Virus record (IMG/VR): IMGVR_UViG_3300042447_001246
From: an uncultured virus (IMG/VR IMGVR_UViG_3300042447_001246)
Taxonomy: Duplodnaviria; Heunggongvirae; Uroviricota; Caudoviricetes
Reading direction: 5' to 3' (one strand)
Length of the DNA stretch: 64,000 nucleotides
The notes under the pieces are model-generated. The model was not told where the DNA came from and searched no databases. It saw only the letters and a program-made list of their open reading frames with translations. The translations under genes and the position numbers were made by a program. Below are positions 14,998 through 43,148 of the stretch, in pieces. Numbering within the stretch: position 1 is the first letter of the stretch; every line of letters begins with the position of its first letter.

Positions 14998-15048
14998 TTC
15001 ACAATTCTCCCATATTTTTATTGGTTTGAAGGACAATAAATGATAACA

Positions 15049-15582
15049 CTAGCCAGCGTCAACAATCATGTGAATCCTATGAGTGGAGCCATTGTTGTCG
15101 ACTCTGTGAACCCTGTTGGTGTTGTCTATCACCCAAATCTCCCCTGGTTTTAAATTCTTAGAAATACCACCAACCGTGAATGTGCAGGAGCTATTTGTGA
15201 CAATAGGTATGTGTATTCTGTGAGTGTTTCTGGTGACCACCCCCTGGTCTTTATGCGGCTTAATAATCCCTCCAGGGTTCATCCTTGTCAACATCGAGGA
15301 CGTTTCTGAAACTTGACCAATGGATTCTCCTGCAATTTTGCATATTTCCATTATGTCCGAACTGAATTGTTCGTAATGTTGGTGCTTTTCTGGACTGTAC
15401 TCATTGGACTTTGGAGAATACTTCAACGGGATTGTCTCGGTGTGATAACTGGCTATCCCCCCTGTGTTTTTTCTACCCTTATATTCACTCCAATCTAGGT
15501 CATTGAAGGATAAAACCTTATTCAGTAGATTCTGAAAGTCTGGGAAAATTCCCACATATCTAAATGCTTCATTTTCTTTCAT
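15049..15582 (-). CDS. aspartyl/asparaginyl beta-hydroxylase family Fe/2OG oxygenase
   Basis: PGGIIKPHKD, THRIHIPIVTN, GEIWVIDN..VHRVDN...RIHMIVD. Confidence 0.88.
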   Translation of the reverse strand: MKENEAFRYVGIFPDFQNLLNKVLSFNDLDWSEYKGRKNTGGIASYHTETIPLKYSPKSNEYSPEKHQHYEQFSSDIMEICKIAGESIGQVSETSSMLTRMNPGGIIKPHKDQGVVTRNTHRIHIPIVTNSSCTFTVGGISKNLKPGEIWVIDNTNRVHRVDNNGSTHRIHMIVDAG

Positions 15583-27700: not shown

Positions 27701-29634
27701 GCCCAATGCTCTGCTCCGTACTCATCATTGAAATACATTTTTGGATACTCTCCAGCGAGAAATCCGACTACATCCGTTCTGGATAACGCATTTTTAAGCG
27801 ACTCAAGGTCAATCCCATCGCCAGCCTTTGCCATAAGACTCATCACCATTCCGCTAGTGAGGTCTCTAATATTCTCCACCCTTACAGGCTCGCCCTTGTC
27901 GTTGAGGACAGTAATGAAACCGTTGGTTCTAATCTGTCGTTCTGCTTCTCGGTTGAAAGCCTGCATTTGAATAGTGTGGGCAATCTCGTGCTTCATAATA
28001 TGTCGCGCAAATGCTCGTTCTTCAACCATTGCCGCAAGCTGCTTTGAATGCCCGTCAACGGTAACCAAGAAGTCAGTTAAAGCAGTTGCTCTTTCTGAAT
28101 CGGTTTTACCACCAACAAAATCAATCCTCATTCTTTCGCCTGGAGCAAGACTTGGTATTAATGCTTCCTGATTATTCATTATCTCGGGAATATCAACATA
28201 TATAACGCTCATCACGCGTTTGCTGTCTGGCGATGTGTACCCACCAGTAGATGCTTCGTCCATGCGTGGGTCGTCAGGACTTTTAACTTGAAAATCTATA
28301 CGTGCAATAGTTCTCATATGTTCTGGGTCAGCAATGAATGAGTCAAGAGCCGATTCAAGTAGAGCTCTTTCGGTTGTGTACCAGCGCTCTGTGTCTGCTG
28401 CAATCAAGCTCTTTTGACGCTCTGGAGTTAGGCCTGAAAAGCCCGGAACGTGCGCAAGTCTTGCTTTTACTATCTTGTCAATGTCCTCTGCGGATAGTCT
28501 TGTGCTTGTATCTATCGTCCATGCACCGCTGTCTCTCAGCTTCTGGAAAACCTCAAATACGTCGTCGTTTGTTTTTATCTTTTCATCTGTTCTGATTACC
28601 CCAAGCGAGTCCATCAGGCTTGCGATGTTTATGTCCTGCTGAGCAAGCTTGTCTTGAGCGCGAATCATTCCATCAACAAATACCCTGCTATTTCTGTCGC
28701 TGAGGCTCGCTTCACGCCACTTTTTGATGTTCTTGATTCTTTTGCCGTTTTCATCACGCCATACGGTTCTACCGATTCCCGGTATTGCTCCGTTATCAAG
28801 CCATGATAGAAACTCAAAAAGTTTTTTTGTTGTGTGTTTTACACCAGTTTCTTTGCTGACATCAATCCCACTTGCCATCCTTTTAGCAAAGTCGAATATC
28901 TCTGATGCTGAAATTCCGAAACAGTTTGTTCCTGCATTGTCGGTGAACTGGTTTGCCGCAGGTGTACCTGGTGGGCATCTAAACTTTCCATTTTCATCAA
29001 CAATGATTCCAAATGCGCTGGCAGCCCTAGCAATTAGAGACCTTCCTCTTTGCCCAATCGTTCTGCCTGGAAGCCTTTTTTCACTGTAGCCAGAAGGGTT
29101 GACAGTCTTTTCTCCGTTAAGACTAAATGGGTCAAGAGTTTGTTCTGATTCTTCGATTATCTCATCAGTTTTTTGGTTGACCTTATATTTTCTTATTCGT
29201 AGTTTTGGTTTTGCTGCGAGGATTTTTGCATACTCGTCAGCTGAAACAGAACGTGGCTCATCGACCCATCCAAAGTTTGGTTTCTTTACTGCAGTATTCC
29301 GCAATTTAACTGATGGGAAAAGATTGAGGATTTTGCCTTCTTCCCACTTTTGACCTGGAAGATAGTTGTACCCGTTTAGACGTTCAACCATTCCAGGCGT
29401 TCCGCCTTTATTGGTCCTCTTTTTCCCGTCGGTGTCTTTGTATGTCTCGTTACCTGTTGCGCCATCAAGCGCCTTTACAGACAGCCCGGCGTTTAGCGTT
29501 GGCCTTGTTATTGATTCAGTTACAGCCTTCTTGAACGCAATTGCTGCGTCGTTGAGGTCTCGTCTGCCAGCGAGCGGTGATACAAGCCTCTCGGATGTGA
29601 TTGTACGTGTTTTATAGAACGGCTTACCCGTCAT
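21736..29634 (-). CDS. giant (~2630 aa) multidomain virion-associated protein: zincin metallopeptidase plus ART-like modules
   Basis: Uninterrupted ORF; KHEIAH...EAAAE zincin motif; ART-like segments; internal duplication; four [LF]SSG motifs; likely start MTGKPF at 29634. Confidence 0.8.
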   Translation of the reverse strand: MTGKPFYKTRTITSERLVSPLAGRRDLNDAAIAFKKAVTESITRPTLNAGLSVKALDGATGNETYKDTDGKKRTNKGGTPGMVERLNGYNYLPGQKWEEGKILNLFPSVKLRNTAVKKPNFGWVDEPRSVSADEYAKILAAKPKLRIRKYKVNQKTDEIIEESEQTLDPFSLNGEKTVNPSGYSEKRLPGRTIGQRGRSLIARAASAFGIIVDENGKFRCPPGTPAANQFTDNAGTNCFGISASEIFDFAKRMASGIDVSKETGVKHTTKKLFEFLSWLDNGAIPGIGRTVWRDENGKRIKNIKKWREASLSDRNSRVFVDGMIRAQDKLAQQDINIASLMDSLGVIRTDEKIKTNDDVFEVFQKLRDSGAWTIDTSTRLSAEDIDKIVKARLAHVPGFSGLTPERQKSLIAADTERWYTTERALLESALDSFIADPEHMRTIARIDFQVKSPDDPRMDEASTGGYTSPDSKRVMSVIYVDIPEIMNNQEALIPSLAPGERMRIDFVGGKTDSERATALTDFLVTVDGHSKQLAAMVEERAFARHIMKHEIAHTIQMQAFNREAERQIRTNGFITVLNDKGEPVRVENIRDLTSGMVMSLMAKAGDGIDLESLKNALSRTDVVGFLAGEYPKMYFNDEYGAEHWALEAAAELWALRDLGLIYGDDIDAALEWMDDVSDGRYIDIRRRSDADGLREIEARYYENLGPDPELSGNSIAEVRERLEVAHKKELSLIEEWSQDSSTTNGDFIDALAGLEYNREAYNDAFDNLEATGESKDSPAFKNLNRKIKENNAKIALIEKKWAERFSSEDKDRRRSDVKKMRESVREKMFSEGNLRPKEMAARSRQQEIKNLQQQAEDMTEDEFVQKLADIEISLKEPGLSADDKSVLLEDKKMLRAIFKSKLEGSDDAKVWAKQRRELDTRIDEIVNPPRQQALKKTKKVKTDKAGASYAKKIQRDESLAMTEEQAIAVERLGDPELTDIGNLVDPDGNVSAVKNINRRYRRAQRSAGDLSPESETASLEDQIEKVLIPAMEAMDESSIPDDLEIEAEIYFGVTDSGFKDVSEYFDNQSFVSGRIITDESPHKPGEARDADGDVITRAGKEKTRVIVQVSKGDKGLFRTNETELGEEGALVLPPGKMKVVDVRPDGTIVLRVQEQDNVVDVLDRVSSSIGEEGPGAGQHAKGTKKKIDRVANKYVAQRRENGLSSTPSRPKREVEIEDKNVEVKRQVISAGGSFGEPPSEDYIAEIGKTPLVQPAEADIKDARDMYKARTGKEFDLSSIYLLNVEELLNYRARLYKAMLDPDFRNRDDNPYDYDGLIAEVDKTLAYRGEIVANLPKTPPRDYPYIPGTLERSPYETSIARVPLVQPAEADIKPDPVDPITGRPRLTTVFRMDVDELVNRRADVYRRLLNPDYANDRKGWQGTDRATLKSIDDELAKRGEIIANLPQPPEFDPDHVPGTKKRAPYKTSAGAALDPTTGSEVLGIPQTREERKVVRATRANMTFEDIKRVMAGESPKEVMNDMSRESLDPAVADVVARKSVEAILKDIEDAAVEFHAGIDKRPRVRMTENQLTKFADDGEFLPTETDDIVLESGPIGRRLERRLNPRTRRTAPKLSSGANIYRKIERAETFQDEDELGVKRGKEISEKPEKLSSGAIERTLKPGDLKKSPTQGFAKKEGRFGEERKAFDVYDIGGESVVFGGPTNDFEMESDTEIKNVPINPYAITGLDRTSDKGQELAEKWVAARAAHLSEGGSPGRSTNVDALLYASVRGDDDAAKEFDRLSEIGLKLIAEEREKSIEGISFSEDDLLQERKEGLDKIGVDDLYLVHETQYDPPLDADGNIILKPLSAYELTSDSGEKVTVQRHTIHFALNHMAGGHIARQQKPGSNVIVVRLRDVLENNPDSVDSLFPVDTVLTPKPGGGIKMPKGSFQVVKTTEDGDSNEMVRTALKELGAKHFFKPGEYSSSTGAESAVRRIAKGEGFNYQMHSNMPHAYIEMNASGTEEQLGRPSTLELWPQELARMSKNAQKSVGISDKFTGTTGVMVGDRFSSGRRTTNKPSKTQRVAGIAGSRATGRVLDAVLKRSGADEDTRERVKYGVNMAGALAAGGPVGFATALAVDVARRAGREVAERGLEEAVQRGKITQNQMDVAMSAVDRVAPNGLPDPVVDKLADAWTIASDFIDERVVTDENKQRLDEFGDIIRGEGAELLENAGEIVGSARDKVGKKFKKLKKKKNTEDGIGEDGISDGPDLAELRSRFGSESLPASSEYDDPFDGYNENDYTPAKTEYDPFGDSAFSSGKRAGRSSDAFRDEYNSRIGISKSTPNSAKPVSGYVVHRSHNEEKKRQIAASGKGNIGSDAIFEIGDNDVVGDGLTALGEIEVILKPEVSNRTAYGRGEALQSAHRPVAMNSNDPDDIADAIMNADGISSKKQNTEAMLHLLGAKMDKNFSSVNASMDENGKMAPVGSVDSSARSHEPFEAQILGGFKKNEVEGIHYPYSKVAKIAESEDISDVVNDRSLASKLEKLGFTPEEVAYFYSISGGKPLNTASMVKLKEYRAAKKIKEKYEGMGVGYVKFAHPQGINIENPRSYDKTASPTTRVDEIIKRNIDAEVEAELKKTLDSIRKSGQLDLMVD

Positions 29635-29650
29635 GGCGGGCCGCCCTTTC

Positions 29651-31099
29651 TTAGATTGTGTCAGTTTCTGCTTCGAGCAGCTGGAATTCAACAAGGGACT
29701 TCATGAAATCTCCATCAAGAGTTTCATCTTCCTTCTTGCTCATTCCTTCGCCACCGGCAACCCAGCCTGCTGGGATTAAGTTTTCTTTGCCGAGTTCGCG
29801 AGCGCGCTTGAGAATGTGTCGCTTTGCAGCTTCTTTATCCTTTGCGCGACCAAATGCTTGGATTGCATTTCTGAGGTCAGACTCGTTCGAAATTGGGTAT
29901 GAACCATCTGGAAGCGCGTTTCCTTCTTTGGCCATCGAATCACGCTGTTCTTCTGTGAATGCGCGCTTCAACGCAATTTCTGCTGCTTCAGCTTCAATCT
30001 CTTCTGCTTCTTCTGGTTCGTACTTGTCGTAACCAAGAACTTCGCCATCAAGAGCAACGAATACATCGTATGACTTTCCGTCAAATCCTTCGATTTCAAC
30101 AGCGTATGAGTCGATGCCTTCGAAGTTGTCTGGCTCAACAGCAACTACATGACCGTCAATTGACTTGACTGCGATTTCAGCTGCATCGGTGAAGCTAATC
30201 AAATTGAGTTCATCAATTGCTGTCTTCTGTTCAAACACGCTTTCATCGAGCTTGTGCCAGCCCATAACTTCTGCAGAAGTTCCGTCGATGAATACTTCGA
30301 CTGCCTTGCCATCCTTGCCCTGAACATCAATGACGAACATGTCAGCATCTGGTGAGTAACCTGAATCGATTACTTTTCCGTCGAACATTTCTTCAGCCAT
30401 CCCCTCAACACTCAAGAGGCCTGGCATTCCTTTTTCTGCGATACATCCGCCTGGGCAGTTGTCGCAAACAGAAGTTACAGCAGAGTAAGACTTACGCTCA
30501 ATTGCGCAGATGTAATCATGTTCGCCAAGCTCATCTGACTTCATTCCCATTGTCGCCATGCGGCGCTTGCGGAATTTTTCCATCATGATATTTTGCTTCT
30601 CGGCTTCCGCCATGTCCTCTTCATCCTCGGAGTCCATGTCGTCCTCCATCGAGCCTTTTTCTTCTTCGGACATTTCTTCTTCGTCGTCCTCTTCGGACTC
30701 CATGTCCTCTTCTTCTTCGTCCACCATCTCTTCTTCATCGCCTTTTTTCTTAAACTTCTGCATGGCGGTATTGACTTTTTCCCCGCCATCCATCATGTCT
30801 TCTTCTTCCATGTCATCCTCTTCGGACTCCATGTCTTCTTCCATGCCCATACCCTTCATTGGCTTCTTCTTTGGCATCATGCCGTACATCTTTTGCATGT
30901 CCTCTTCGGTCATGTCTTCATCAGCGATGTCAAGGTCTGTTGCCGGTACCATCTTCATCTCTACTGGCATAGCGCCACATTTGCCGCACACCTTTGCTCC
31001 TGGAGTGAAACCGCACGCAGATGCATCAGCTCCTTTGGCGCACTTGAGCACAGCCCCTTCGCTGTCAATACTCACTGTTGCCTTGTCGTCGTAAGCCAT
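29651..31099 (-). CDS. acidic scaffold-like protein (Cys clusters, E/D/M-rich linker, PepSY-like repeats, C-terminal DUF6582-like domain)
   Basis: CGKCG, long EEDM repeats, two PepSY-like units (AVKSIDGHVVAVE..YAVEI..YDVFVALDGEVL), ALPDGSYPI..DLRNAIQAFGRA. Confidence 0.7.
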   Translation of the reverse strand: MAYDDKATVSIDSEGAVLKCAKGADASACGFTPGAKVCGKCGAMPVEMKMVPATDLDIADEDMTEEDMQKMYGMMPKKKPMKGMGMEEDMESEEDDMEEEDMMDGGEKVNTAMQKFKKKGDEEEMVDEEEEDMESEEDDEEEMSEEEKGSMEDDMDSEDEEDMAEAEKQNIMMEKFRKRRMATMGMKSDELGEHDYICAIERKSYSAVTSVCDNCPGGCIAEKGMPGLLSVEGMAEEMFDGKVIDSGYSPDADMFVIDVQGKDGKAVEVFIDGTSAEVMGWHKLDESVFEQKTAIDELNLISFTDAAEIAVKSIDGHVVAVEPDNFEGIDSYAVEIEGFDGKSYDVFVALDGEVLGYDKYEPEEAEEIEAEAAEIALKRAFTEEQRDSMAKEGNALPDGSYPISNESDLRNAIQAFGRAKDKEAAKRHILKRARELGKENLIPAGWVAGGEGMSKKEDETLDGDFMKSLVEFQLLEAETDTI

Positions 31100-31236: not shown

Positions 31237-34200
31237 TTAACGTCTTCTTTGTGAGTTGTCGTGAAGCTGAAGAAGTTTTGTCCATTGAGTTGGAGACAAG
31301 AATCCTTTGGCTTTGAATTGAGAAACAAGGCTTTGAGCAAATCCACTCCATTTGGCATTTTCTGCCCAGCCCATTATTTCTTTTTGCATTCTTGGGGTTA
31401 TGTTTTCTGGGGCTCCGTTGTTTTCTCGCCCGGAAGAGAGTTTTGTAACTGCTTCCTGACCAGAATTGGTTATTCTGCGAGCGGCTCTTCTTCCACTGCT
31501 CATAGAACCTCCACCCTTGACTGAGTCAACGGTTTCGCTTAAGTCGTACTTCTTGTTGAGTCTGTCAACTATTTCCTGAACTTCTTCATCAGAGTAACGA
31601 AGCGCTTTTCCAACACGAGGGCTGAATTTTGGCTGCTTGCCTTGTTCAAAGGTCTTTAGACGGCTGATTATCTTTGCCGCACCAAGCACCTCATCGATAT
31701 CGTCCCACTTAACCTTTTTGCCACTTCTTTCAACGGCGTCAACAACGTTTCTCCAGAGCGAGAATTGGGGAATTGAGTTGTCAAACTTGGTGCCGTCTTC
31801 ACCGAATACTTCGCCAGCGCTTGGGATTATGCCTTGATTAACAAGTTGTTCAACTATTCCTGTTGGGACGCCTTCTTGTTTCCATTTTTTGAGCTGTATT
31901 GGTGTCGGCGTGAACGTCACTCCGTCAACTTCAAACGTCAGGGCTTCAGATAGTTCTGCATCTGACTCGACGCCAAGTGAATCTGAAAGCGCGGAAACAG
32001 AGAATCCGCCCTTGGAAATTTCTTGTGCAACGGTTTGCTCAGTCTCAACCATGTCTGCAGGGGACATGAGTCCAGCCATGTAGATTCCCTCGTCAAGGAA
32101 GTCATCATATTGCTCACGAGTGAGCTGGTTTCCGTCCTTGTCGTACCAGTACGGCTTAGCACCAAAGCCCCAAATTCCATCAATTATGTCGCTTGTCTGG
32201 AAAGGGTTTGAACTGTCAGAGAATGCTCTGTCAATCAAGGCGTAAGCATCAGCTTCGGAAATGCCTGCTCCTTCTTTGAACATCTTCTCTGCTTCTATCT
32301 CGCTTATACCGAGGTAATCTGCAATTTGTTCTTTGCTCAATGGCTTGCCGTTTTCGTCTTTCAGAATTTGCTGCAGCTTCCTGGCGTCAAGCATCCACTT
32401 ACCATCTGGAGACCTGTCGTTATTTTCTGAAGTTTTTCCAAACTTTATTTTGACATCAGCTGCCAACTCTCGGCCAACCTTGTTTCTTTGCAATTCACCA
32501 GGCATCCTGAGTCTTCCGGAACTGAATTTTTCAGTGCCGAATTCGTCTTTGCTTGGTCCAGGTCGCTTCTTGCCCGGAATTGTTGCTGCTCTCTGTCTTA
32601 CGCCATCAGCAAACGCCTGTCTGTCGGCATCTGACATTGGTCGTCGTTTTGAACCCTGTGTTCTTCTGTTTCTTCCAGAGCTAAGTCCTGGAGCATCTCC
32701 TGGCTCCAGGAAGTCGGCTACATCGCCTTCAACCATGTCGAAGTTAGAGAGGTTGCTAGGTGAGAAAATGTCTTCAGGAAGACCGCCCTTGCTCTCTCTG
32801 TTTAGTGATACTCCGCTTTCCTCGAAAGACTCACCTATCCCAAAGAGGTCGCTTAGCTCTCTCTCTAGCCTGTTGATTGCACCGTAGTACATGTCGCTGA
32901 GTTTTGCAGCAAAATCTTCCGGCTTTGTTGTGTTGTTGATTGAGTCAACCAAGTCTTCAATTTCATTTATTTGACTCTGCAGTGAGGAGCGAATGAACGA
33001 ATCGTCGATTGCCTCGATATCTTCAAGTACTCCTTGGATTTCCTGAGCATCAAATCTCATCGAATCAACGGCATCAGCGGCATCCCCGTCAGCATCGTCT
33101 ATATGCTTTTGCATTGCTGACTCGAAGTCAACCTTGCCGCCATCTCTCCAGCTGTTTCTGTACGAATTTTCTAGAAGGCCTATCTTTTCGCGCAAATCAT
33201 CGGTTTGCTGATTCAGGAGTGCAAGATTCTCTACATGGTCTTCCAGCTGTGATTCGATGTCATATATTGCTGAATCAAGTCTGTCAATAAATTCCATATC
33301 ATCATCTGAAATTTGTCCAGTCAAATCATCGATGCTTGGTGTACTTTGCTTTGTGATTTTCTTACCATCAAGAGCTGCGCGGATGTATTCATCCCTCGTA
33401 GCAACTAAGTCATCGATTGCGTCAATAGCTTTTTTATGGTCTTCTAGAGCAATCCTTCCACGTCCACCATTTGGAAGGAAGCCAATTTTCCCATCAAGAG
33501 CATCCTGTGTTACTGGATTGTTGAACTGCCCGCTCTTTTCAAACTCGGACTTGATGTCTTCTGGTGACCTTCCAGAACTCAGGCGTCCACCGCCAGGAAT
33601 CCTGCTAGAAACCAAACTTCTCGTTCTTCTTCCAGAAGAGAAAGACGTTCCTTGAGGGACTCCAGGTTGTGTTGGATTGATTGGGGCAACTGCGCCGTCA
33701 ATCAAGCCCTCAATCTTGTGGAGACTGAAACTTCTATACTGACCCGATTCCTCATCAAGTCCTATGAAGTATATTCCTCCGCCCTTCTTGGTCATCATTC
33801 CGGTTGGATAAACCATTCGTGGCTTGCCGTTGTAAGTAAATGAGATGACCTCACCGTTTCTGCGTATGGAATCAAAGTCATACTTTTCAACAGGAACCGC
33901 AGGCAAGTTTGCCGCGATGTGCCTTGAGTTTGAGCCAGCCTCATCCGTTCTCTTGAGAGCGTCTGTGACTAAGCCAATTTCCTCAGCAGGAGTTTCGTCG
34001 TATCTAGAGCGAACCCCGGATGAAAGTCTGCTGTTTTCTTTCATCAATTCAGCCTGGATATCGCTAGCTTCGTCTGCCCAGTCTTCTGCGCTCCAGTCAA
34101 GGCGTGATTCATCTATCTGCGCCATCATCCGGACATATTCCTGTCTGTCTGCGCGCTCTCTTGAAGCTCTCTTGTAATTTTCGTACTCTGCGTCTCGGCG

Positions 34201-37200
34201 TGCTTCCTCTTCTTTGAGCATTTCGGCAATTTTTTCAATGTCGGTTTCTGCTTTAAACTTGCGTTGCCATTCTATGCGGCTGTTTTCATAAGAGTCAGCC
34301 CATCGTGCTGCATCTTCTGGGGACTTAAAACCCTCCGAGCCAACTCCGGCAATGTCCCAGTCGATTTCGTCGTCTTCACCGACACCGTCCATGACCATCA
34401 ATTCAGCAAACCACTCACCGGATTCATCCTGGCTTACATTCCACTGACTCGGGCGCGAGCGTCCACCTAGGAAGGCGCTTGCCTCAAACCAACTTCTGTC
34501 GCCATCGCGATAGCCTCTGCGCATATCGAATTCAGTGAGAACCTCATCACCAAATGCGCCCATTTCATCAGCAAGAGTTCTTACTGTCCCCTCAGGATTT
34601 AGCACATACTTGCTACGTCTTCCAGACGAGAGAGCAGCAGGTGCTCCGTCATACGTAGCATCCCTGTTTCCAGGTATGACTCCAGCCTCAGCAACCTTTC
34701 TACCAAGCTTTTTGCTCATCGATGGAGAGAGGGATATTGCGTAGTCGTGCGCTTTCTGCGCTTGCTCAAAAGCATTCTTAAGTGCATCTGGGTCAGACTT
34801 GAGTTTCTTGAGCCATGATGCAAGGTATTGAGCATGGTCTTCTCTTGGCTCAGGGGTCAAGCCGTGAGCAGTCATAAAGAATGCTGATGCTATTTCCGCA
34901 ATAAGCTCTTCTTGTGCATATTCAGGGCTTCCAAAGTCTCCCATGTGGTCTCTGTTCAGACGGCTCTTGCCACCCGTCCAGTGCATCAACTCATGAGCAA
35001 AGACTGCATAATAAGCTTCCTTGCTCTTAAATGACGAAAAAGGAGGAAGTGTTATTTCGTCTGTTGATGGTCTATAGAACGCTCTATCTCCACCGTGATT
35101 GACTACTGCACCGATTTCTGAAAGTGCTTGTTCAAGTTCTGCAGCACGCTCTTCTTCTGAGAGTTGAGGCATCTTGAATTGTTCTTTATCAATTCCGTCA
35201 ATCTGGTCGAGGTTGAAAACATATCCTGTTTTAAAGAAAATTGAACCAGGCTTTATTTCATTGCCATCAGCATCTTTCTTTGCAGGAATGATTGTTGGGA
35301 TGATTATCATCGTCCCCTTTTCACCCTTACGAACAGTTCCGCCTTTTTCTTTCCACTGATTAAATCCAGCCCAAAGCCCTGTCTCGTAATTCATTGCATC
35401 CTTCTGGAACATCAACATCAACGAGTTGATTCCAGAGTATGGGCGATTGTTGTTCATAGCATTACGTGGAAGAGAAGCATCTCTGTGCCAAGGGAACTCC
35501 CACTTGCCACCTTCTGTCTCTGCTTTTTGTATTTGCTCGATTAGCTTTTCTTGAACGCTTCTATAAACCTCGTCCAACTTCCCTGAAGACAAACGCTGTC
35601 CAGGTTCCATGCCCTCAAGCGGACTTACGTACTTTTTGCTACCCGAACCAAGCGTGTCTCCGCGTTGTTTTTCAACCCAGGACTTTGCTTCCTTGTCTCT
35701 ATCACGCAAAAGTTTCATGTGCTTTTGCTCGCGTCTTCTCACAGTTTCACGGCTGAGGCCAAGAGCCTTGGCAGTCTGGTCAAGCGATTCTCCACCCATA
35801 CGACGGTCGTAAATTGACTCGTTCAATGCAAGCTCTGATGCTTCCTCTGCTGCCATACGTGCTTGGTCTTCGCGGTAAGACTCAACCTCGTCAAAGTCTG
35901 GTCGTTGCAGTGTTCCACGTTCGCGAGCCATGTGGCGCATTTCTGCCTGTCGCACATCTTCGCGTGTCATTCCAAGAGCCGAAGCAGTGTCCATGAGCGA
36001 TTCCCCACCCATGCGGCGCTCAAATATCTCCCTATCAGAGACACCCAGCTCCTCTTGGTTCTTTCTCTTTCCAGAGGACAGATTTCTTGCTTGACGATTG
36101 TCGTACTGTGTTTCTAGATAATCCTGATACATCTGTGACGCAGCGTACGCAACGTCTTGAGCAAATCTTTCTCCACCGGCACCATACTCGTTAATGTATT
36201 CATCCCGTGTTTCGCCGTCGGTATCCATCCAGTGGTCAAGGATTCTCTCTGCCTCCATGCCGGTGTGGCCAATCTCTCCCAATTCCCAAAGCTGGTCTTT
36301 TCTCACTGCTTCCTCTGGGTCTTCGTATCTCTCGAACCCAGTTCTAGTACGTCTGCCGGAGCTGAGACCCTGACGATTTTTGTCTGCGAATTGTCTTTGT
36401 CGGATTTGACCTAGTTCTCGGCGTAGTTTTGACTTGTAGTTGTCGCTAAGACCAAGTTCAAGGCTGCGTAAGATTTTTTCTGCTCTGGCGGCATCTCGGA
36501 TTGGCTGAAATGCTTTAAACTTTTCATCGGCCAAATCATAAACGACATCTTCGTCGACCTTGTTGTCGTCAATCTGTATAAGAGTAAATCCTTCATTTTC
36601 TTTGTTGTTAGGCTTGCTCCAGATGTCTTCGTCTGCGATTAAGAAACCAGTTCCATTATCGGTATCAAAATCTATCCCATAACCGTCGTTGATGTATTCT
36701 GGCGTGTCTAGCTGCTTACCATTTTCGTCATGCGTAATCACGATGTCGATTGAGCCGGCGTATGGCCGTGGAGTGTCTCTTCTTGAGCTGTATTCTCCCT
36801 CGACTAGTTCGATTTCGAAATCGGAACCATTAACGATTACACCCCTTCGCCCGTCATTGAGGGTGACTGTGTTCCCAATAAAATCCCTTCCGTTTGCTGA
36901 AGAAATAGTGTCAAGGTCAACTACGAACTCATCCGCATACGGACCACTGTCGTCCCATCTACCGGTAGGGAAAGAAGCGTCCATATCCCCGCCGTATTCA
37001 TCAAATAACGCAGGCTTTGAATCTCTGGACATTGCTTCGTCAAGAACTTCTTTTCTCCTAGAAGAAAGACGAGAACCATCAGTGTCTTGATTTTTTTCTC
37101 CTGCAATGAATTTCTTTATGTCGTCAATCGAGATGTTCCCAGTCATGTCTTCGTAGTACTGGTCGATAACATCTTGCTCTGATGGCACGACGTCTGGCTC

Positions 37201-40200
37201 TGAGCCATACGGTCCAACTGGTTCAAGTCCCCAATCGGTTCCAAGTCTTACATCTTCCAGGTCGTCAGAAGTTGGCGCTCCATATATGGCGTCAACCACT
37301 TCTTCCTTGCCATAATCGTTGTATACATCAATTATTTCGTTGTGAGTTACGCCTGTATCAGGGTCAACATAGTCTGGGTGTATTTCAGGATTTTTCTCTA
37401 GTAAGTCGCTAAAAAACTCGTCGTTATCATTGAGTGTTAATTGGTTGTTTCTGTCTCTTTTTGCTTTTCCAGTATTCCAGTCGCTATCCCAGCCACGATT
37501 CCTCCACGCATAGGTGGCTTGAAGGATGCCCTTCTTTTCGTCATTGTCAAGATTTTCCCATGACCGCAATTCTGGAGTTTTATCGGAACGACCAGAAGAA
37601 AGGCGTGAAGAATCAGGCATATACTCATCAGCACCACTCATGCTCTCAATTATCTTGTCGTAATCTTTTTCTGCCCATCTCTTCGCAGCTGAAGGACTGC
37701 TGAATGTTCTATCGACATCTTCATCAAGTGCGTTTTGTCCACCATTTCTGTAGATATCAGAGAAACGGGTTATTGAGTACTTACCCTTGCCCTCGCTATT
37801 GATTCGGTACATGCCGTCAATATCTGGCGCGTCCATCTCAAAACCGTCTTCTGTTTCTGTCCAGTTATTTGTTGGGGTTTTCCCATAAAACACGTAGTCG
37901 TCTATGACGTCTCTGGCACTCTTTGGCTTCTTTTTGCCAGAAGAAAAACCAGGTTTTTCTTTTAGAGTTCCATCAGCATTAGCGAGAAATGTTTCTTTAC
38001 CTTTATTTCTCTTGACTCGGTCGAGACGCCTCTTCTCAATTCCCTCAGGCGAGAAAAGTCTTTCTCGTGCTGCTCTCGCTCTCTCGGTTCGTGCAGCCAT
38101 TTCCTCATTGGAAACCCCTTGAATATCAGCTAATGCTCTTTGACGAGCCCGCTCTTCGGCTCTTTCGGCAGGAGTCAGACCTTCGTCTTCATCATCTTCT
38201 GCATCCTCGTCAATTACGTCATCTTCAATAACGGGTCTTGGTTTATAGTTCCCGTTTTCATCCCACATTAGGAGGGATTCTTTTCCGTCACCCTTCGCTT
38301 TTGCTCTCTCGTAATTGGCAGCGCGACGCAGACGGCGCTCTTCTTCCCTCTCCTCCGGGGTTGGCTTCTTTTTGTCACCAGAAGAAAGCTTGCCTTCTGA
38401 ATTGAGTTTGCGAAGTTCCTGAAGGTCTGGTCCTTTTTCTGTCCCTGAACCACCCTTCTTTTTTTTCTTCTTCAGCTTGTCAACATCCAAAAGACCAATG
38501 TCATTTAGGTACTCGTTGAGGGTGGCGATGTCTTCTTTTGCCCAGTCCTGCGTGTCTGGGTACTTGGACTTAACATCTGCTCTCAGGGCTGATTCAATTC
38601 CGTCCCAGTTATCTGAGTCATCTCTGCTGTGTGCATCAAGATAGGCACTAACTGATTTTGCATAGCTCGAATACCAGTTACTGTATTCATTGGAAGCTTT
38701 TTGCTTCTCGTTAAACTTTTCAGGACGCTTTCTTACAGAGTCGCCATTCCACATAACACGTGCTTGGTTGACTCCGATTTCGCGACCACGGAGATAGTCA
38801 GAACTTAAATTGTTATCTGCGTTGTAGCGTGGAACTTCTTCCCAGCCAAGACCCTGCTCATCCCATGCTTTAGCGATTGCTTCGTGGTCTACGCGCTTCT
38901 GATTTTCTTCAGCATTTGGGAATTGCTTTTCCATGTCGGCAGAACGGTCTGCATGGCGACGCTCATTACGCTTGCCAGAAGAGAGTTTTTCTGTATCAGC
39001 AAGTTCGGCTCGCTGACTCATCTGCCTCTTTGATGGCTTCGGTGAATTGATGGAGCCAGGACCAGAAGGCGTTGGGTCGGGTTGTTCCCATGGCGTGCCG
39101 TCGCCGACCATGCTGTTTAGGTTTGCGTCTTCGACTGTTCTTGGGTCCCAGCCTGGAGGCGGATTTATACCGGAACCACGAGAGCGCCGACCCCTTTTAC
39201 CGCCAAGATTTGGTCGGTCAATTCCTCGGCTTGCAATCGCACGACCGATACGGCGGCCAAGTGCTTTTTCTTCTATTTGCTCAGAAGCTATTTTTTTTTT
39301 TAGAAATTCATAAGCAGAAGATGCAGCTCTAGTTATAGCGTCCTTCGACTCTTCGCTGAGCGGTGAGTTAATCACGATTCCGTACTCGTTGACGGTTGTG
39401 TCAATTCTGTGGTAATCAAGAACTGGGTCAATTACCGACTTGAACTCAAATGCGTCTTCAAGATTTACTGGGATGACGTATGACGAGTCTTGAGCCAAGA
39501 ATGGGTCGAGACCCTTTTCCTCAAGCTCTTGCTCCTCTACGCCCCACTCCTCAAGAGTCTTATAAGAGCGACGCTTTCTACGGCGCTTCTTCACCGTGTT
39601 ACGCAAAACCCCAAGAATGAATTCTCCAGGGTACTTCGCTTCGATGTCCTCAACCATCTTGATTTCTTCGTCATCAAGAATGTCGTTGTATTCCTTCTTG
39701 CCAAATCCGACTACAACACCATCTGGGATGATTGCGAATCTGCACTTGGCTTCATCTTCAACCTTGAAGTCAAGAATCTTGCACTTGCCTTCACCTTGGT
39801 AAAGAACACAGTTTGAGCACTTAACGCCAATGTCTTTTACTTTGTTTTCTGCCGGAGGATAGTATCCAGCCCAAATTCCGTCGCCGTCTTCGTCAAACTT
39901 TCCGTACTTGCGAGCGATACGAACAAGCGATTCGGCAAGCTCGCTCTCTTCTGCACCAAGCTCTGGCTTTTTGTTCTTGTCAGAACCTTCGTACTCAACA
40001 GGCGCCAATGGAACCATGACCATTCCGCCATTAACTGGCTTCATTGCTACAGGCATTGCCATTGCAGGGTTATTTGTCGACGGCTTATTCGGTTTGCCCA
40101 TAATCCCAGGCATTGGCGAAGGGCCAGACTGGACTGGCGGTTTTGCCTGTTCTGCGTGAATTAATTCTGGCTTACCAAACATGTACTCGCTTCCAGTGAA

Positions 40201-40956
40201 GTGGTAACCAATTCTGAATTTTCCTTTTCCTGGCTTCACAAAGACCACAGAGTTCTCAGTCGCTTCAACAACCATGACTGGTCCTGCGGCGCGGCGTGAA
40301 AGTTCGGCAACCACTCCTGCAAGCTGTGGTCCACTTATTCTTTGTGAAACACCTTCGTCAAACAGTCCGTCTCGTCGTGGCTCTGATGATGGAGCGCTTA
40401 TTGACATAGGCATCATCCCGTGCGTCTTCTCTTCATCGCTCTTAACCGAAATTGTTCCGGTTAGCTGATTGGCTCCATGGAGAACGGGTGAAACTTCGTA
40501 GAGTTCAACTTCGTAAAGAACGTTTGCCTGAAGGTTTTCATCGTATTGAGCTCTGAGAGTTTTGTAGCCGATTGACCACTCTTGTTCTTCACCAAAGAAG
40601 GCGACGTTTGCGAATGCTTCTCTGCCTTTTTCTGACTGAAGATTGAATTGAACTTTCGCGTAAAGACCGCCGATTCCAGCCATTTTCATCTTCATTGGAA
40701 GTCTTGGGTCTGATGCTGGAACTTCGTAAATTTCCAGAACTTTACCAATTGGGTCATTCCAGTTGTGGCCCCATACAACACGCGGCTTGCGACGCTGAAG
40801 GCTCTTAGCAAATGCACCAGTAGCGCAGATATCTCCTACAGAGTCCTTGTTTCCAATCCCCGAAACGAAACATTCAACAATGCCCTCTAGTTCATCGAGC
40901 TTGATGAGACCATTGGAGGCCTTGTATTGAATATTTCCGAAGTTAGAGTTTGGCAT
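31237..40956 (-). CDS. prohead (capsid maturation) protease, HK97 family, fused to a ~3000-aa modular cargo polyprotein including ArdC
   Basis: N-terminal GIVECFVS.GNKDSVGD...GAF...VVWGHNW.DPIG...WSIGY...LYEVSPV.GAN protease motifs; ArdC (PW, N..RPYSGIN, VRKGEKG, VFNLDQ, AFY.PSTD, HELMHWTG, YAQEELIAE); RBS AAGGAG. Confidence 0.9.
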   Translation of the reverse strand: MPNSNFGNIQYKASNGLIKLDELEGIVECFVSGIGNKDSVGDICATGAFAKSLQRRKPRVVWGHNWNDPIGKVLEIYEVPASDPRLPMKMKMAGIGGLYAKVQFNLQSEKGREAFANVAFFGEEQEWSIGYKTLRAQYDENLQANVLYEVELYEVSPVLHGANQLTGTISVKSDEEKTHGMMPMSISAPSSEPRRDGLFDEGVSQRISGPQLAGVVAELSRRAAGPVMVVEATENSVVFVKPGKGKFRIGYHFTGSEYMFGKPELIHAEQAKPPVQSGPSPMPGIMGKPNKPSTNNPAMAMPVAMKPVNGGMVMVPLAPVEYEGSDKNKKPELGAEESELAESLVRIARKYGKFDEDGDGIWAGYYPPAENKVKDIGVKCSNCVLYQGEGKCKILDFKVEDEAKCRFAIIPDGVVVGFGKKEYNDILDDEEIKMVEDIEAKYPGEFILGVLRNTVKKRRRKRRSYKTLEEWGVEEQELEEKGLDPFLAQDSSYVIPVNLEDAFEFKSVIDPVLDYHRIDTTVNEYGIVINSPLSEESKDAITRAASSAYEFLKKKIASEQIEEKALGRRIGRAIASRGIDRPNLGGKRGRRSRGSGINPPPGWDPRTVEDANLNSMVGDGTPWEQPDPTPSGPGSINSPKPSKRQMSQRAELADTEKLSSGKRNERRHADRSADMEKQFPNAEENQKRVDHEAIAKAWDEQGLGWEEVPRYNADNNLSSDYLRGREIGVNQARVMWNGDSVRKRPEKFNEKQKASNEYSNWYSSYAKSVSAYLDAHSRDDSDNWDGIESALRADVKSKYPDTQDWAKEDIATLNEYLNDIGLLDVDKLKKKKKKGGSGTEKGPDLQELRKLNSEGKLSSGDKKKPTPEEREEERRLRRAANYERAKAKGDGKESLLMWDENGNYKPRPVIEDDVIDEDAEDDEDEGLTPAERAEERARQRALADIQGVSNEEMAARTERARAARERLFSPEGIEKRRLDRVKRNKGKETFLANADGTLKEKPGFSSGKKKPKSARDVIDDYVFYGKTPTNNWTETEDGFEMDAPDIDGMYRINSEGKGKYSITRFSDIYRNGGQNALDEDVDRTFSSPSAAKRWAEKDYDKIIESMSGADEYMPDSSRLSSGRSDKTPELRSWENLDNDEKKGILQATYAWRNRGWDSDWNTGKAKRDRNNQLTLNDNDEFFSDLLEKNPEIHPDYVDPDTGVTHNEIIDVYNDYGKEEVVDAIYGAPTSDDLEDVRLGTDWGLEPVGPYGSEPDVVPSEQDVIDQYYEDMTGNISIDDIKKFIAGEKNQDTDGSRLSSRRKEVLDEAMSRDSKPALFDEYGGDMDASFPTGRWDDSGPYADEFVVDLDTISSANGRDFIGNTVTLNDGRRGVIVNGSDFEIELVEGEYSSRRDTPRPYAGSIDIVITHDENGKQLDTPEYINDGYGIDFDTDNGTGFLIADEDIWSKPNNKENEGFTLIQIDDNKVDEDVVYDLADEKFKAFQPIRDAARAEKILRSLELGLSDNYKSKLRRELGQIRQRQFADKNRQGLSSGRRTRTGFERYEDPEEAVRKDQLWELGEIGHTGMEAERILDHWMDTDGETRDEYINEYGAGGERFAQDVAYAASQMYQDYLETQYDNRQARNLSSGKRKNQEELGVSDREIFERRMGGESLMDTASALGMTREDVRQAEMRHMARERGTLQRPDFDEVESYREDQARMAAEEASELALNESIYDRRMGGESLDQTAKALGLSRETVRRREQKHMKLLRDRDKEAKSWVEKQRGDTLGSGSKKYVSPLEGMEPGQRLSSGKLDEVYRSVQEKLIEQIQKAETEGGKWEFPWHRDASLPRNAMNNNRPYSGINSLMLMFQKDAMNYETGLWAGFNQWKEKGGTVRKGEKGTMIIIPTIIPAKKDADGNEIKPGSIFFKTGYVFNLDQIDGIDKEQFKMPQLSEEERAAELEQALSEIGAVVNHGGDRAFYRPSTDEITLPPFSSFKSKEAYYAVFAHELMHWTGGKSRLNRDHMGDFGSPEYAQEELIAEIASAFFMTAHGLTPEPREDHAQYLASWLKKLKSDPDALKNAFEQAQKAHDYAISLSPSMSKKLGRKVAEAGVIPGNRDATYDGAPAALSSGRRSKYVLNPEGTVRTLADEMGAFGDEVLTEFDMRRGYRDGDRSWFEASAFLGGRSRPSQWNVSQDESGEWFAELMVMDGVGEDDEIDWDIAGVGSEGFKSPEDAARWADSYENSRIEWQRKFKAETDIEKIAEMLKEEEARRDAEYENYKRASRERADRQEYVRMMAQIDESRLDWSAEDWADEASDIQAELMKENSRLSSGVRSRYDETPAEEIGLVTDALKRTDEAGSNSRHIAANLPAVPVEKYDFDSIRRNGEVISFTYNGKPRMVYPTGMMTKKGGGIYFIGLDEESGQYRSFSLHKIEGLIDGAVAPINPTQPGVPQGTSFSSGRRTRSLVSSRIPGGGRLSSGRSPEDIKSEFEKSGQFNNPVTQDALDGKIGFLPNGGRGRIALEDHKKAIDAIDDLVATRDEYIRAALDGKKITKQSTPSIDDLTGQISDDDMEFIDRLDSAIYDIESQLEDHVENLALLNQQTDDLREKIGLLENSYRNSWRDGGKVDFESAMQKHIDDADGDAADAVDSMRFDAQEIQGVLEDIEAIDDSFIRSSLQSQINEIEDLVDSINNTTKPEDFAAKLSDMYYGAINRLERELSDLFGIGESFEESGVSLNRESKGGLPEDIFSPSNLSNFDMVEGDVADFLEPGDAPGLSSGRNRRTQGSKRRPMSDADRQAFADGVRQRAATIPGKKRPGPSKDEFGTEKFSSGRLRMPGELQRNKVGRELAADVKIKFGKTSENNDRSPDGKWMLDARKLQQILKDENGKPLSKEQIADYLGISEIEAEKMFKEGAGISEADAYALIDRAFSDSSNPFQTSDIIDGIWGFGAKPYWYDKDGNQLTREQYDDFLDEGIYMAGLMSPADMVETEQTVAQEISKGGFSVSALSDSLGVESDAELSEALTFEVDGVTFTPTPIQLKKWKQEGVPTGIVEQLVNQGIIPSAGEVFGEDGTKFDNSIPQFSLWRNVVDAVERSGKKVKWDDIDEVLGAAKIISRLKTFEQGKQPKFSPRVGKALRYSDEEVQEIVDRLNKKYDLSETVDSVKGGGSMSSGRRAARRITNSGQEAVTKLSSGRENNGAPENITPRMQKEIMGWAENAKWSGFAQSLVSQFKAKGFLSPTQWTKLLQLHDNSQRRR

Positions 40957-41075: not shown

Positions 41076-43148
41076 CTAAATGAACTGCCCGAACTTCCAT
41101 GCTCTTCGCGATTCGTCCTCGGCAATTTCAAATCTTTGCTTAGCCATGAGATTTGCGTACATGCTTACAACAGCACCACGGAAGGAAGCAGCTCTTTCTT
41201 CCTCGCCCATCACGGATAGCGAGTTGAACATCATCGAAGATATTTGATTGAAGTTGTCAAGATTCATACTCTTGATGCGTGACATCTGTGAATCAATCTG
41301 GGCATTGAGGTCCGACTGATTTATGCTCTTTTCAGACTTCTGACCGTATCCATCATTGTACGTATTAAACGCATCCTGAATGATTGCCGATATAACAGGC
41401 CTTATGTCCTCGTCCATTTGCTTGTCCCAAACCTCGGGGGAGAGTATTGAGTCAATTTCTAGAGTTCCAGCAAACAGCGACTTCTTTGCCTTCGAACCGC
41501 TTGCCTTCTCAAGCACAACTCTTTGCTGTCTCTCGATAACTCGCTCAATGCTTCTGTTGAGAATCTCGTTCCATCTCGTTAGCGATTCTGCGCTTTTTGC
41601 CTGCAACTCGCTCTCGATTGACTTGTACATCATTCCGCCTGTTGGAACAGATGCGGCTCCGCCTGGAACAGGCTCTGCGGTTGTCGCAACAGCAGCAAGT
41701 GCCTCTGGCGGAATCGTGCTTTGGGCTAGCTGGTCTGGAGCCGGAGCGACTGGTGCTTCAACTTGAGCCAATGCACCTTGCATTGTATTTGGGTCAAGTG
41801 GTGGCTGTCCTTCTGCGCCAGGGATTGGGGCTTCTGGCATTGGTGCTCCAGGGACTGGCGCGCCAGGGACGCCAGGTGCGCCACCCATCTCTGCTGACGG
41901 AGCGGTTTCCATCTTCTTTTTTGTGTTCGCGATTGGAATCAAGTTTGGATTCATCAATAACGAGTCGGCAAGGTCGGCTTCAACTTCTTTTCTTCCTGAG
42001 CCTGTTCTGTACTCATTGTTGCTGATGAGGCCAGTTTGGAACTCCTGCATCAGATATCTTTCACGCTCTTGCTTGTAGAGCTGAAGGATTGGGACTTCAC
42101 TTGTATCGAAGTCAACGTAGTACTCGTCATCAAGTTCATCCAATGAGCGAGCAAGTGGCTCAAGGTGCGGGAGCATTGTTTCCATCCAGAACACACGAAT
42201 TTCTTCGCTTGCATTGCTGAAGGTTCTTCCCGCAGCGTTTCCGATTACTGACTCTGGAACACCAAATGATGCAAGGATTTCTTCCTTTGTAATCTGTCGC
42301 ATCTGAGCGTACGCAACGTCTCTTGGCGACGCAGAAGTGTCCACATAGTCAACGCCATCGTCGGCAGAGATAACCGTCGTATGACCCGCTCTTCCGATGT
42401 TCCCACGGAATCTGCTCTTTAATTCTTCCTTGTCATCGTCTTCGATTTCTCCACGCAAAACGAGCAGACCACCAGGTCTACCGTCGTTGAGCAGATAGTT
42501 TCTGTTGTACAGCTTTGCAAGATTTTCAATTTCAATTGCAACACCAGCCGACTCAAGAGGCGTAAGTGACAAATATGGGTCAAGAGGGTGAGGTCTTCTA
42601 ATCCAGCAAACATCCTCTGGTTTCATTGTGATTTTTTGACCGTAAGGCATTTGTACTTCGTACCCAGAAACAAACTTCTTTGCATCTGGAATTGGCGCTG
42701 TTGATTGAGGAGGCAAAAGGTTAAGACCAATTATTCTTCCGTCTCTACCACGAACTTTTTCAATGAAAACACCGCGTGTACCCAGCAAGAGTTGAGCGGA
42801 CATTCTGTATCGGAAAATAAATGAGTTTTCACCAACGTTTGATTTAGTGTTTAGGACTTCAAGCAAAGAGTTGTTTTTTGCTCTGTTTCCAATAAGCACC
42901 TCTCCGTCTGGAGAATTGTCTTTACGAAGAATGATTGGGAGTCGTGCTTGGTTCCCAGCGATTGCATCGATGCATCTTGCAACCCAGGTAACCTTCTGCA
43001 TGCCTTCGCGGTATGCGCGCTCAACATCCCATGAGTCTCTATAAGGTCGTCCTGCATAACTTGGGTTCTGCGCTATGGGCGCACCAGGTCCAAGCTCCTT
43101 GGATTGTGCGTTTGCGAGCGATTTATTGCTCGATTGATTCCATGCCAT
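41076..43148 (-). CDS. portal protein, HK97 family, with Pro-rich linker and MuF-like C-terminal extension
   Basis: VARCIDAIA..ARLP, LSPL-like LTPLE, NDGRPGGLL, EILASFGVP..G, TFSNASE, NEYR. Confidence 0.92.
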   Translation of the reverse strand: MAWNQSSNKSLANAQSKELGPGAPIAQNPSYAGRPYRDSWDVERAYREGMQKVTWVARCIDAIAGNQARLPIILRKDNSPDGEVLIGNRAKNNSLLEVLNTKSNVGENSFIFRYRMSAQLLLGTRGVFIEKVRGRDGRIIGLNLLPPQSTAPIPDAKKFVSGYEVQMPYGQKITMKPEDVCWIRRPHPLDPYLSLTPLESAGVAIEIENLAKLYNRNYLLNDGRPGGLLVLRGEIEDDDKEELKSRFRGNIGRAGHTTVISADDGVDYVDTSASPRDVAYAQMRQITKEEILASFGVPESVIGNAAGRTFSNASEEIRVFWMETMLPHLEPLARSLDELDDEYYVDFDTSEVPILQLYKQERERYLMQEFQTGLISNNEYRTGSGRKEVEADLADSLLMNPNLIPIANTKKKMETAPSAEMGGAPGVPGAPVPGAPMPEAPIPGAEGQPPLDPNTMQGALAQVEAPVAPAPDQLAQSTIPPEALAAVATTAEPVPGGAASVPTGGMMYKSIESELQAKSAESLTRWNEILNRSIERVIERQQRVVLEKASGSKAKKSLFAGTLEIDSILSPEVWDKQMDEDIRPVISAIIQDAFNTYNDGYGQKSEKSINQSDLNAQIDSQMSRIKSMNLDNFNQISSMMFNSLSVMGEEERAASFRGAVVSMYANLMAKQRFEIAEDESRRAWKFGQFI

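Follow-up and report, generated by a model that had tools for sequence, protein, structure and literature searches.

A giant head-cluster protein of an uncultured caudoviricete phage, led by an S78-type protease and punctuated by [LFM]SSG motifs, is probably a self-cleaved polyvalent polyprotein

The subject of this analysis is a protein of 3239 amino acids (aa) encoded by DNA of an uncultured virus of the Caudoviricetes (IMG/VR record IMGVR_UViG_3300042447_001246), of which a stretch of 64,000 nucleotides (nt), referred to below as the window, was analysed. The gene belongs to a minus-strand head operon in the order portal, 3239-aa gene, a 482-aa gene, a second giant of 2652 aa, five smaller genes and an HK97-fold capsid gene. 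The protein begins with a protease of the HK97/S78 type, and the long chain behind it is punctuated by the short motif [LFM]-S-S-G. The best explanation of the observations described below is that the polyvalent head protein is probably built as a true polyprotein, in which the motif is cut by the phage's own prohead protease. The gene, its motifs and its modules are arranged as follows.

31237..40956, minus strand: gene of the putative polyvalent head polyprotein, open reading frame (ORF) of 3239 aa with an ATG start
38977..40956, minus strand: module F0, aa 1-660, with the S78 domain (40438-40881) and two small folds, then an extended, disordered tail rich in Pro up to the first motif
38974..38985, minus strand: LSSG at aa 658, end of the protease module; the aligned place reads ITGR, VTGAM or VSGRM in sister lineages
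38377..38388, minus strand: LSSG at aa 857
37936..37947, minus strand: FSSG at aa 1004
37591..37602, minus strand: LSSG at aa 1119
37057..37068, minus strand: LSSR at aa 1297, which is LSSG in the near-identical record G001
36355..36366, minus strand: LSSG at aa 1531
36070..36081, minus strand: LSSG at aa 1626, in a low-confidence linker of the structural model
35584..36072, minus strand: helix-turn-helix (HTH) module, aa 1629-1791, with two sigma-70 region-4-like repeats
35641..35652, minus strand: relaxed LGSG at aa 1769, in a low-confidence linker; in many homologues a stretch of 20 aa bounded by exact motifs stands at this place
35581..35592, minus strand: LSSG at aa 1789, four residues ahead of the start of the ArdC match
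34624..35583, minus strand: ArdC module, aa 1792-2111, ArdC-N plus zincin MPTase with intact HExxH
34621..34632, minus strand: LSSG at aa 2109, in a low-confidence linker
34015..34026, minus strand: LSSG at aa 2311, in a short loop with model confidence of about 75
33634..34017, minus strand: weak WYL-like module, aa 2314-2441
33631..33642, minus strand: FSSG at aa 2439
33571..33582, minus strand: LSSG at aa 2459, bordering a basic spacer of 20 aa
32674..32685, minus strand: LSSG at aa 2758
32515..32526, minus strand: FSSG at aa 2811
31495..32517, minus strand: module F1, aa 2814-3154, function not assigned, the commonest cargo module (97 of 121 proteins)
31492..31503, minus strand: MSSG at aa 3152
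31429..31440, minus strand: LSSG at aa 3173, followed by the 64-aa module F8

The motif is far too frequent in this protein to be a product of its composition. The 15 exact copies compare with an expectation of 0.21, and 2000 shuffles of the sequence gave a mean of 0.19 and a maximum of 3. All 15 SSG tripeptides are preceded by L, F or M, the first of them does not occur before residue 659, and the Gly is directly followed by Arg or Lys at 13 of the 15 sites. The Ser residues are encoded by TCT, TCC, TCA, TCG, AGC and AGT, and a direct-repeat search of the gene returned just chance-like matches of 15-31 nt, which means that conservation acts on the protein and that no DNA repeat underlies the motif. 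A previous sequence-only reading of the window had placed the 15 exact motifs, the relaxed LSSR 1297 and LGSG 1769 and the motif-free N-terminal part exactly here, and had pointed to the basic residues behind the motif and to protein-level conservation; all of this was borne out.

The N-terminal domain is matched by Pfam Peptidase_S78 (PF04586) at aa 26-173 with 37.5 bits (cut-off 21) and by phrog_80 'head maturation protease' (2.9e-25), and it is 37-43% identical to annotated capsid maturation proteases of Gordonia phages. The residues H64 (VVWGHNW), S128 (EWSIGY) and H160 are invariant in 30 of 30 aligned sequences; H64 and S128 are presumably the catalytic His and Ser, an assignment taken from the S78 motifs and not from structural superposition. 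Cutting at the motifs yields 16 segments, and every Pfam match of the protein is confined to one of them. ArdcN (PF08401, aa 1796-1914, 6e-26) and MPTase-PolyVal (PF18818, aa 1940-2062, 2.8e-42) both fall within segment 1792-2111, and Sigma70_r4 (aa 1715-1751) falls within segment 1629-1771. The ArdC module also matches phrog_7245 'anti-restriction protein' (3.8e-82), retains HELMH as its HExxH signature and aligns to residues 8-284 of the 297 residues of PDB 6I89/6SNA (E = 2e-42). Because the module spans nearly the full 6I89 chain, one inter-motif unit is, judged from this alignment, one whole free-standing protein. The claims that a prohead protease heads a multi-module protein between portal and capsid genes, and that recognizable domains lie between the motifs, are thus upheld for the protease, ArdC and HTH; the WYL domain that had also been proposed is a weak match (aa 2366-2417), which at 20.0 bits stays just under its cut-off of 21.8. 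Module F1 gave no usable match in a language-model protein atlas, and the C-terminal 778 aa had no tblastn match among 50,697 phage records.

To describe the family, residues 1-700 were used as the query in a search limited to proteins of 1781-5669 aa, and 281 giant homologues sharing the N-terminal S78 protease were found, the best 120 of which were examined. At least two motifs are present in 119 of these 120, at least five in 98 and at least ten in 68, with a median of 10.5 per protein, and the first motif lies at median residue 658. When the window protein is added (121 proteins), x is L, F or M in 1244 of 1359 xSSG tetrapeptides; in front of the tetrapeptide R, K, G or S predominates, and behind it R, K or A. 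These 121 proteins were cut after the second Ser, and the 1365 resulting segments were grouped at a reciprocal coverage of at least 70%, which gave 318 module families, including 202 singletons. Of the 121 proteins, 120 have the protease module, 97 have F1 and 94 have the ArdC module (median 326 aa), which in all 94 is bounded by motifs on both sides. Its position varies by clade, being before F1, after F1 or last (P0117-P0121). Close relatives of the window protein exchange three or four modules between conserved neighbours, tandem duplicates occur (F17 twice, F76 three times, F106 twice, F11 twice), and additional domains, such as a UvrD-type helicase and pentapeptide repeats, are found in some homologues. 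Modules are gained, lost, duplicated and reordered as motif-bounded units, as expected from the exchangeable cassettes envisaged in the sequence-only reading. In each of the 33 proteins with module F8 (aa 3176-3239, 31240-31428, minus strand), this module stands last or next-to-last. The HK97 protease ends in a capsid-targeting tail, and by analogy the end position of F8 could reflect a position-specific function of this kind.

The coincidence of motifs and module borders was also visible in alignments and models. Of the 559 ends of BLAST alignments (high-scoring segment pairs) to the window protein, 50% are no more than 20 aa away from a motif, compared with 22% for random positions, and the 29% found within 10 aa is at the extreme of what 2000 trials with random cut sites gave. 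The part from aa 1534 to 2461 was modelled with AlphaFold, with a mean predicted local distance difference test (pLDDT) of 74; in this model, all low-confidence stretches of at least 12 residues either carry a site (1626, LGSG 1769, 2109, 2439/2459) or directly follow site 1531. The model of aa 1-700 (mean pLDDT 51) is confident solely in the protease and two small domains, and site 658 lies in its long disordered tail. Moreover, the motif pairs spaced about 20 aa apart resemble spacer peptides. Alignment ends, segment families and model linkers therefore agree with the view that the motif marks module borders.

The motif is not restricted to the 3239-aa protein. The window is contained in record G001 (172,519 bp, rated complete, a myophage), whose proteome was counted over 209 crude ORFs with 53,361 aa. 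More than one motif was found solely in the 3239-aa protein, in the 2652-aa giant of the same head cluster (4) and in the probable tape measure (2), which follows the sheath and tube genes on the plus strand; six other proteins have a single motif, in none of them followed by R or K. The enrichment over the remaining proteome that had been proposed as a check is thus evident, and it extends to two further proteins. Among 80 related capsid-centred loci, 64 have a second giant ORF, and these ORFs hold 173 motifs against 6.5 expected, compared with 26 against 20.3 expected in the other ORFs of at least 200 aa of the same loci. The 2652-aa protein has no sequence match in Pfam, PHROG or PDB. The G001 record is linearised within the polyprotein gene and has overlapping ends (C1:1-5062 and 166570-172479), and the LSSG/LSSR difference at site 1297 is a polymorphism of P1' type between the two near-identical genomes. 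The other head and tail features of the window relevant here are the following.

21736..29694, minus strand: second giant head-cluster protein, 2652 aa, no family match
24787-24798, minus strand: LSSG at aa 1633 of the 2652-aa protein
24676-24687, minus strand: LSSG at aa 1670 of the 2652-aa protein
23485-23496, minus strand: FSSG at aa 2067 of the 2652-aa protein
22741-22752, minus strand: FSSG at aa 2315 of the 2652-aa protein
56547..61007, plus strand: probable tape measure, 1486 aa, named by its length and its place after sheath and tube, no family match
56652-56663, plus strand: FSSGR at aa 36 of the probable tape measure
58269-58280, plus strand: FSSGR at aa 575 of the probable tape measure
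15659..17035, minus strand: major capsid protein, with relaxed LSSR at aa 94 (16745-16756) close to the boundary expected for its delta domain; an N-terminal region of about 97 aa is missing from the aligned Brevibacterium phage capsid protein
41076..43148, minus strand: portal protein, directly upstream of the polyprotein gene, no motif
43405..44712, plus strand: large terminase, divergent from the head operon

The form of the motif differs between lineages, and the forms are referred to here as dialects. The complete sister genomes G003 and G006 encode capsid proteins 74-76% identical to that of the window, stand-alone proteases of 881 and 830 aa, respectively, and separate giants of 2000-3900 aa. 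These giants lack LSSG and carry [ILV]TGAM instead, with 4, 4 and 1 copies in three G006 proteins. Their cargo includes DnaJ, Zeta-toxin-like kinase, NUDIX, RNase T and HTH domains. In the giants of the sister lineages at L102:1198-12261 (minus), L103:4549-11961 (minus) and L095:6675-18422 (plus), which have no fused protease, an ATLF-like zincin occurs as well, and the cargo set is quite unlike that of the window. An LASG dialect is found in P0064, P0080 and P0088 (9, 6 and 8 copies), and further lineages use ISGRM (5-6 copies), VSG(RM) or GMRS. The aligned end of the protease module, after the Pro-rich tail, reads EKLSSGKR in the window, ATITGRTR in G003, GGVTGAMG in G006 and AGVSGRMS in G007. 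The tape-measure homologues (L093, L104, L108-L111, L194-L198), which are clearly homologous, follow the same pattern at their aligned N-terminal site. Within the LSSG lineage, five of six genomes have [LF][SA]SG there (window FSSGR, G002 FASGR, G012 LSSGR, G013 LASGS, G005 FSSGD) and the sixth, G004, has LGSR; outside it, the site is LTGAM in G003 and G006, LTGAI in G007, LAGRM in G008 and LNARM in G009, and no motif was seen at this aligned site in G011. At a second tape-measure site, near residue 550-630, the dialect rule holds in most homologues.

At the level of the aligned sequences, the dialect thus switches together at the end of the protease, in the giant head proteins and at two tape-measure sites, and this is the strongest evidence in the present analysis. 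As the motif is uniform within a genome, differs by lineage and switches jointly in three proteins, the comparison indicates that it is not a passive linker and that some factor evolving along with it, most likely the fused protease, recognizes it as a site. The concerted change across several substrates also favours the cleavage-site interpretation put forward in the sequence-only reading. The associated proposal that newly formed basic N-termini bind DNA did not hold as a general feature, as the basic residues after the motif are missing in the [ILV]TGAM dialect. About ten protease positions (e.g. G33A, A93N/R, R135D, Q137V) separate the dialect groups; this split is fully confounded with phylogeny, with 7 non-LSSG sequences, and it was not used. 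As separate observations, the G006 portal (L103:16483-18735, minus) has a C-terminal Mu F-like domain, and such portal-MuF fusions are linked to polyvalent proteins in the available text of Iyer et al. (2017; PMC5512222).

The S78 domain is the sole constant partner of the motif, and the first site always closes the protease module. Among the 120 homologues examined, 18 lack both ArdC/MPTase and any HExxH and still hold 5-12 [LFM][SA]SG motifs, and in a Pfam search of the G003 giants alone no zincin was found, although their own dialect is present. In 127 further ORFs of G001, outside the 3239-aa protein, no endopeptidase family was found, just VanY. For these reasons the sequence comparison favours the S78 prohead protease over the zincin for reading the motif. 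When the protease (aa 1-185, with alignment) was folded jointly with a linker peptide of 41 aa that spans site 2109, the score was 0.27 against a mark of 0.32 in a run without controls, a result that counts neither way. In the proposed mechanism, the N-terminal HK97/S78-type protease module (aa 1-660) would be followed by about 15 independently folding cargo modules joined by disordered linkers, each with [LFM]-S-S-G and mostly a following R or K, and the motif would be recognized and cut by the prohead protease that the phage itself encodes. The scissile bond may lie between the second Ser and Gly, i.e. [LFM]-S-S|G, with [ILV]-T-G|A and I-S-G|R in other dialects. This guess is made by analogy, because assemblin-type and T4-type proteases use a hydrophobic-x-small pattern: the assemblin site is (V/L/I)-x-A|S and that of adenovirus protease (M/I/L)-x-G-G|x. 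Both have the same shape as the dialects described here, a hydrophobic residue and then small residue(s), in different viruses and with different substrates. After cutting itself loose at aa 658, the protease would go on to part the modules from one another, and the 2652-aa protein and the probable tape measure would be substrates in trans through the same signal. The uncut chain would enter the prohead by its protease end and be cut there, and the pieces would be delivered with the DNA.

Several points weigh against this interpretation. The phage is uncultured and known from sequence alone. The capsid protein, which is the canonical substrate of such a protease, shows no more than a relaxed L[ST]S[RHS], present in 38 of 47 distinct sequences where the delta domain is expected to be cut off, and this site ignores the dialect, since G003 (ITGAM) and G007 (VSGRM) both keep QLTSRE; more distant capsid relatives have nothing similar at the boundary. 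The capsid was considered as independent confirmation and dropped, its site being relaxed and not following the dialect. A motif in a probable tail protein is hard to reconcile with a protease confined to the prohead, and no paper in the literature searched describes a tape measure or another tail protein as a substrate of such an enzyme; for phage T5 this may have been suggested, and no weight is put on it here. If the protease is also active in the cytoplasm, the idea of tethered self-packaging is weakened, and the sister lineages load their giants without any protease fusion. In the model, sites 1789 and 2311 lie in short loops with a confidence of about 75 and not in long linkers. Finally, 462 relatives of the protease were found, and the co-variation was counted over 12 mutually related genomes, which are not phylogenetically independent, and it would equally fit any motif-receptor pair, for example an uncut docking site.

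Such a docking motif, left uncut and bound by a chaperone for very long virion proteins, by the inner capsid surface or by the portal, so that the chain is tethered at many points, is unlikely, and of the alternatives it survives best. Besides the co-variation, it accommodates the presence of the motif in tail as well as head proteins and the fact that the capsid protein does not share the exact motif. It does not explain why the motif lies exactly at module borders, including those around a unit equal to a free-standing ArdC, nor why pairs about 20 aa apart look like spacer peptides; moreover, the only constant partner domain is a protease, and no candidate receptor was identified.

A rather improbable alternative is that the sites are cut by another enzyme, either the zincin (MPTase) of the ArdC module or a host protease. 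The HExxH of the MPTase is intact, the domain is present in most homologues, its autoprocessing is suggested in the available text of Iyer et al. (2017; PMC5512222), and a cytoplasmic or host protease would account for the tape-measure sites. The zincin-less homologues, which keep their motifs, and the G003 giants, zincin-free by Pfam and with a dialect of their own, argue against the MPTase, and the existence of distinct lineage dialects among phages with 74-76% identical capsids fits a phage-encoded reader better than a host enzyme.

Cutting by the S78 protease in the cytoplasm, as an expression strategy resembling that of RNA viruses, has a similarly low probability; the protease would then not act as a carrier, and some modules may not be virion cargo. 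The motif of the tape measure and the sister lineages, which manage with an unfused protease and separate giants, speak for this view. Prohead proteases are generally activated on assembly, which speaks against it, and the late co-expression of an anti-restriction protein with head genes is most readily understood if this protein is virion cargo for the next infection. The detection of a polyvalent protein of 2811 aa in phi24B virions, as given in the accessible part of a preprint (10.64898/2026.04.10.717836), points in the same direction, and it is also a precedent for the preferred reading. That the motif is a favoured flexible-linker sequence without any specific reader is very improbable and already disfavoured: its sites do lie in disordered Gly/Ser/Arg-rich linkers, but a linker needs neither invariance over four residues nor switching between TCN and AGY Ser codons under conservation, and it leaves the uniform dialects within lineages and their concerted switch in three proteins unexplained.

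Cleavage by the prohead protease, as the preferred reading, leads to a more tentative idea, which is possible rather than probable, namely that the head protease and the junction dialect co-evolve as a plug-and-play cargo system. All junctions of the giant polyprotein(s) and the tape measure would be written in one dialect (LSSG, LASG, ITGAM or ISGRM), so that cassettes could be inserted, duplicated, reordered or swapped and yet be correctly released. The dialect might then act as a compatibility code limiting the exchange of cassettes between lineages, and the fusion to the protease might guarantee equimolar loading of the modules.

The general concept is not new, and the claim of novelty in the sequence-only reading was overstated. 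Phage polyvalent proteins with ArdC-N, MPTase and assemblin-like peptidases were described by Iyer et al. (2017; PMC5512222), who, in the text available, predicted that they are packaged, delivered together with DNA and split into free domains by the peptidases they contain, and likened them to RNA-virus polyproteins. The 3239-aa protein shares with them the giant size, many disparate domains, a portal-terminase phage with the gene among late, structural virion genes, the hallmark ArdC-N and MPTase-PolyVal domains, and a prohead-type peptidase; its packaging in the virion is predicted from context and analogy. It differs in that its peptidase is N-terminal, whereas the assemblin-like peptidase is stated there to be 'always' C-terminal, and the available text describes no junction motif, dialects, substrates in trans or cassette shuffling at the level of a motif (PMC5512222). 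The prohead proteases of T4 (gp21), phiKZ and SPN3US (gp245) process numerous head proteins, internal or ejected, through a short motif (PMC10052503, PMC5694885), which is a precedent for the proposed mechanism. According to the parts of these sources available, they resemble the system proposed here in having one head protease, a short shared motif and some substrates with several sites, and differ in that the substrates are separate gene products, mostly losing N-terminal propeptides, the protease is a separate gene of the S77 type, the capsid shares the motif and no tail substrate is reported. In the 3239-aa protein, the protease stands in cis, the sites part whole modules, the capsid site is just relaxed and the motif occurs in a probable tape measure. 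The Dar proteins of phage P1 (DarA, DarB, DdrB) are likewise anti-restriction proteins that are packaged in the head and delivered with DNA, and at least one component is processed before or during packaging; in the account available (PMC5512222), they are encoded by separate genes, incorporated in order, and include no protease-led polyprotein with a junction motif. The ArdC of pSa/R388-type plasmids (PDB 6I89, 6SNA) has the same ArdC-N and HExxH zincin as the module, but it is a free protein moved by conjugation, whereas the phage version sits inside a head polyprotein, between two LSSG sites. A literature search for a motif-punctuated, protease-led phage polyprotein returned just the work on polyvalent proteins and on SPN3US/T4; an N-terminal protease head, a strict border motif, dialects, trans substrates including a probable tape measure and cassette shuffling at the motif were not found in the literature searched. 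The regular junction punctuation and the lineage dialects appear to be new.

Polyvalent proteins are thought to be a main route by which ready-made counter-defence proteins are delivered together with phage DNA, and their loading and maturation have been largely a matter of conjecture. The family described here, with 281 giant homologues and hundreds of related contigs, turns this conjecture into a simple and explicit rule that can be tested in vitro, i.e. one junction signal per module border, changing with the lineage. Cutting at the motif, moreover, delimits cargo modules in metagenomic phage proteins, and the 318 module families, mostly without an assigned function, form a catalogue of candidate anti-defence proteins. 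Because the motif is also present in the probable tape measure, one may ask if maturation by a head protease extends to a tail protein.

The host is probably an actinobacterium, because G001 has two WhiB-family genes (L006:9993-10325 and L007:17595-17978, both plus) and the nearest cultured relatives are Gordonia and Brevibacterium myophages, with 37-43% identity in the protease and 46-54% in the capsid protein. Gordonia phage Chidiebere has its protease in a stand-alone gene of 452 aa adjoining the capsid gene, and it has no giant. G001 has about 12 paralogous 2-oxoglutarate-Fe(II) oxygenase genes (region L003:14553-L004:14189; in the window 10344-11144 and 15049-15582), together with an Asp/Arg hydroxylase, TauD, a fatty-acid desaturase, two DUF6065 genes and glutathione-peroxidase-like genes, an oxygenase set unusually large for a phage. 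DUF6321 is encoded in the window by a separate 664-aa gene downstream of the capsid gene (13042-15036, minus), and in G003 and G006 it lies within the stand-alone protease at about aa 221-300 (L094:3691-6336; L103:13891-16383); this domain apparently shifts between the protease and an independent gene of the head cluster.

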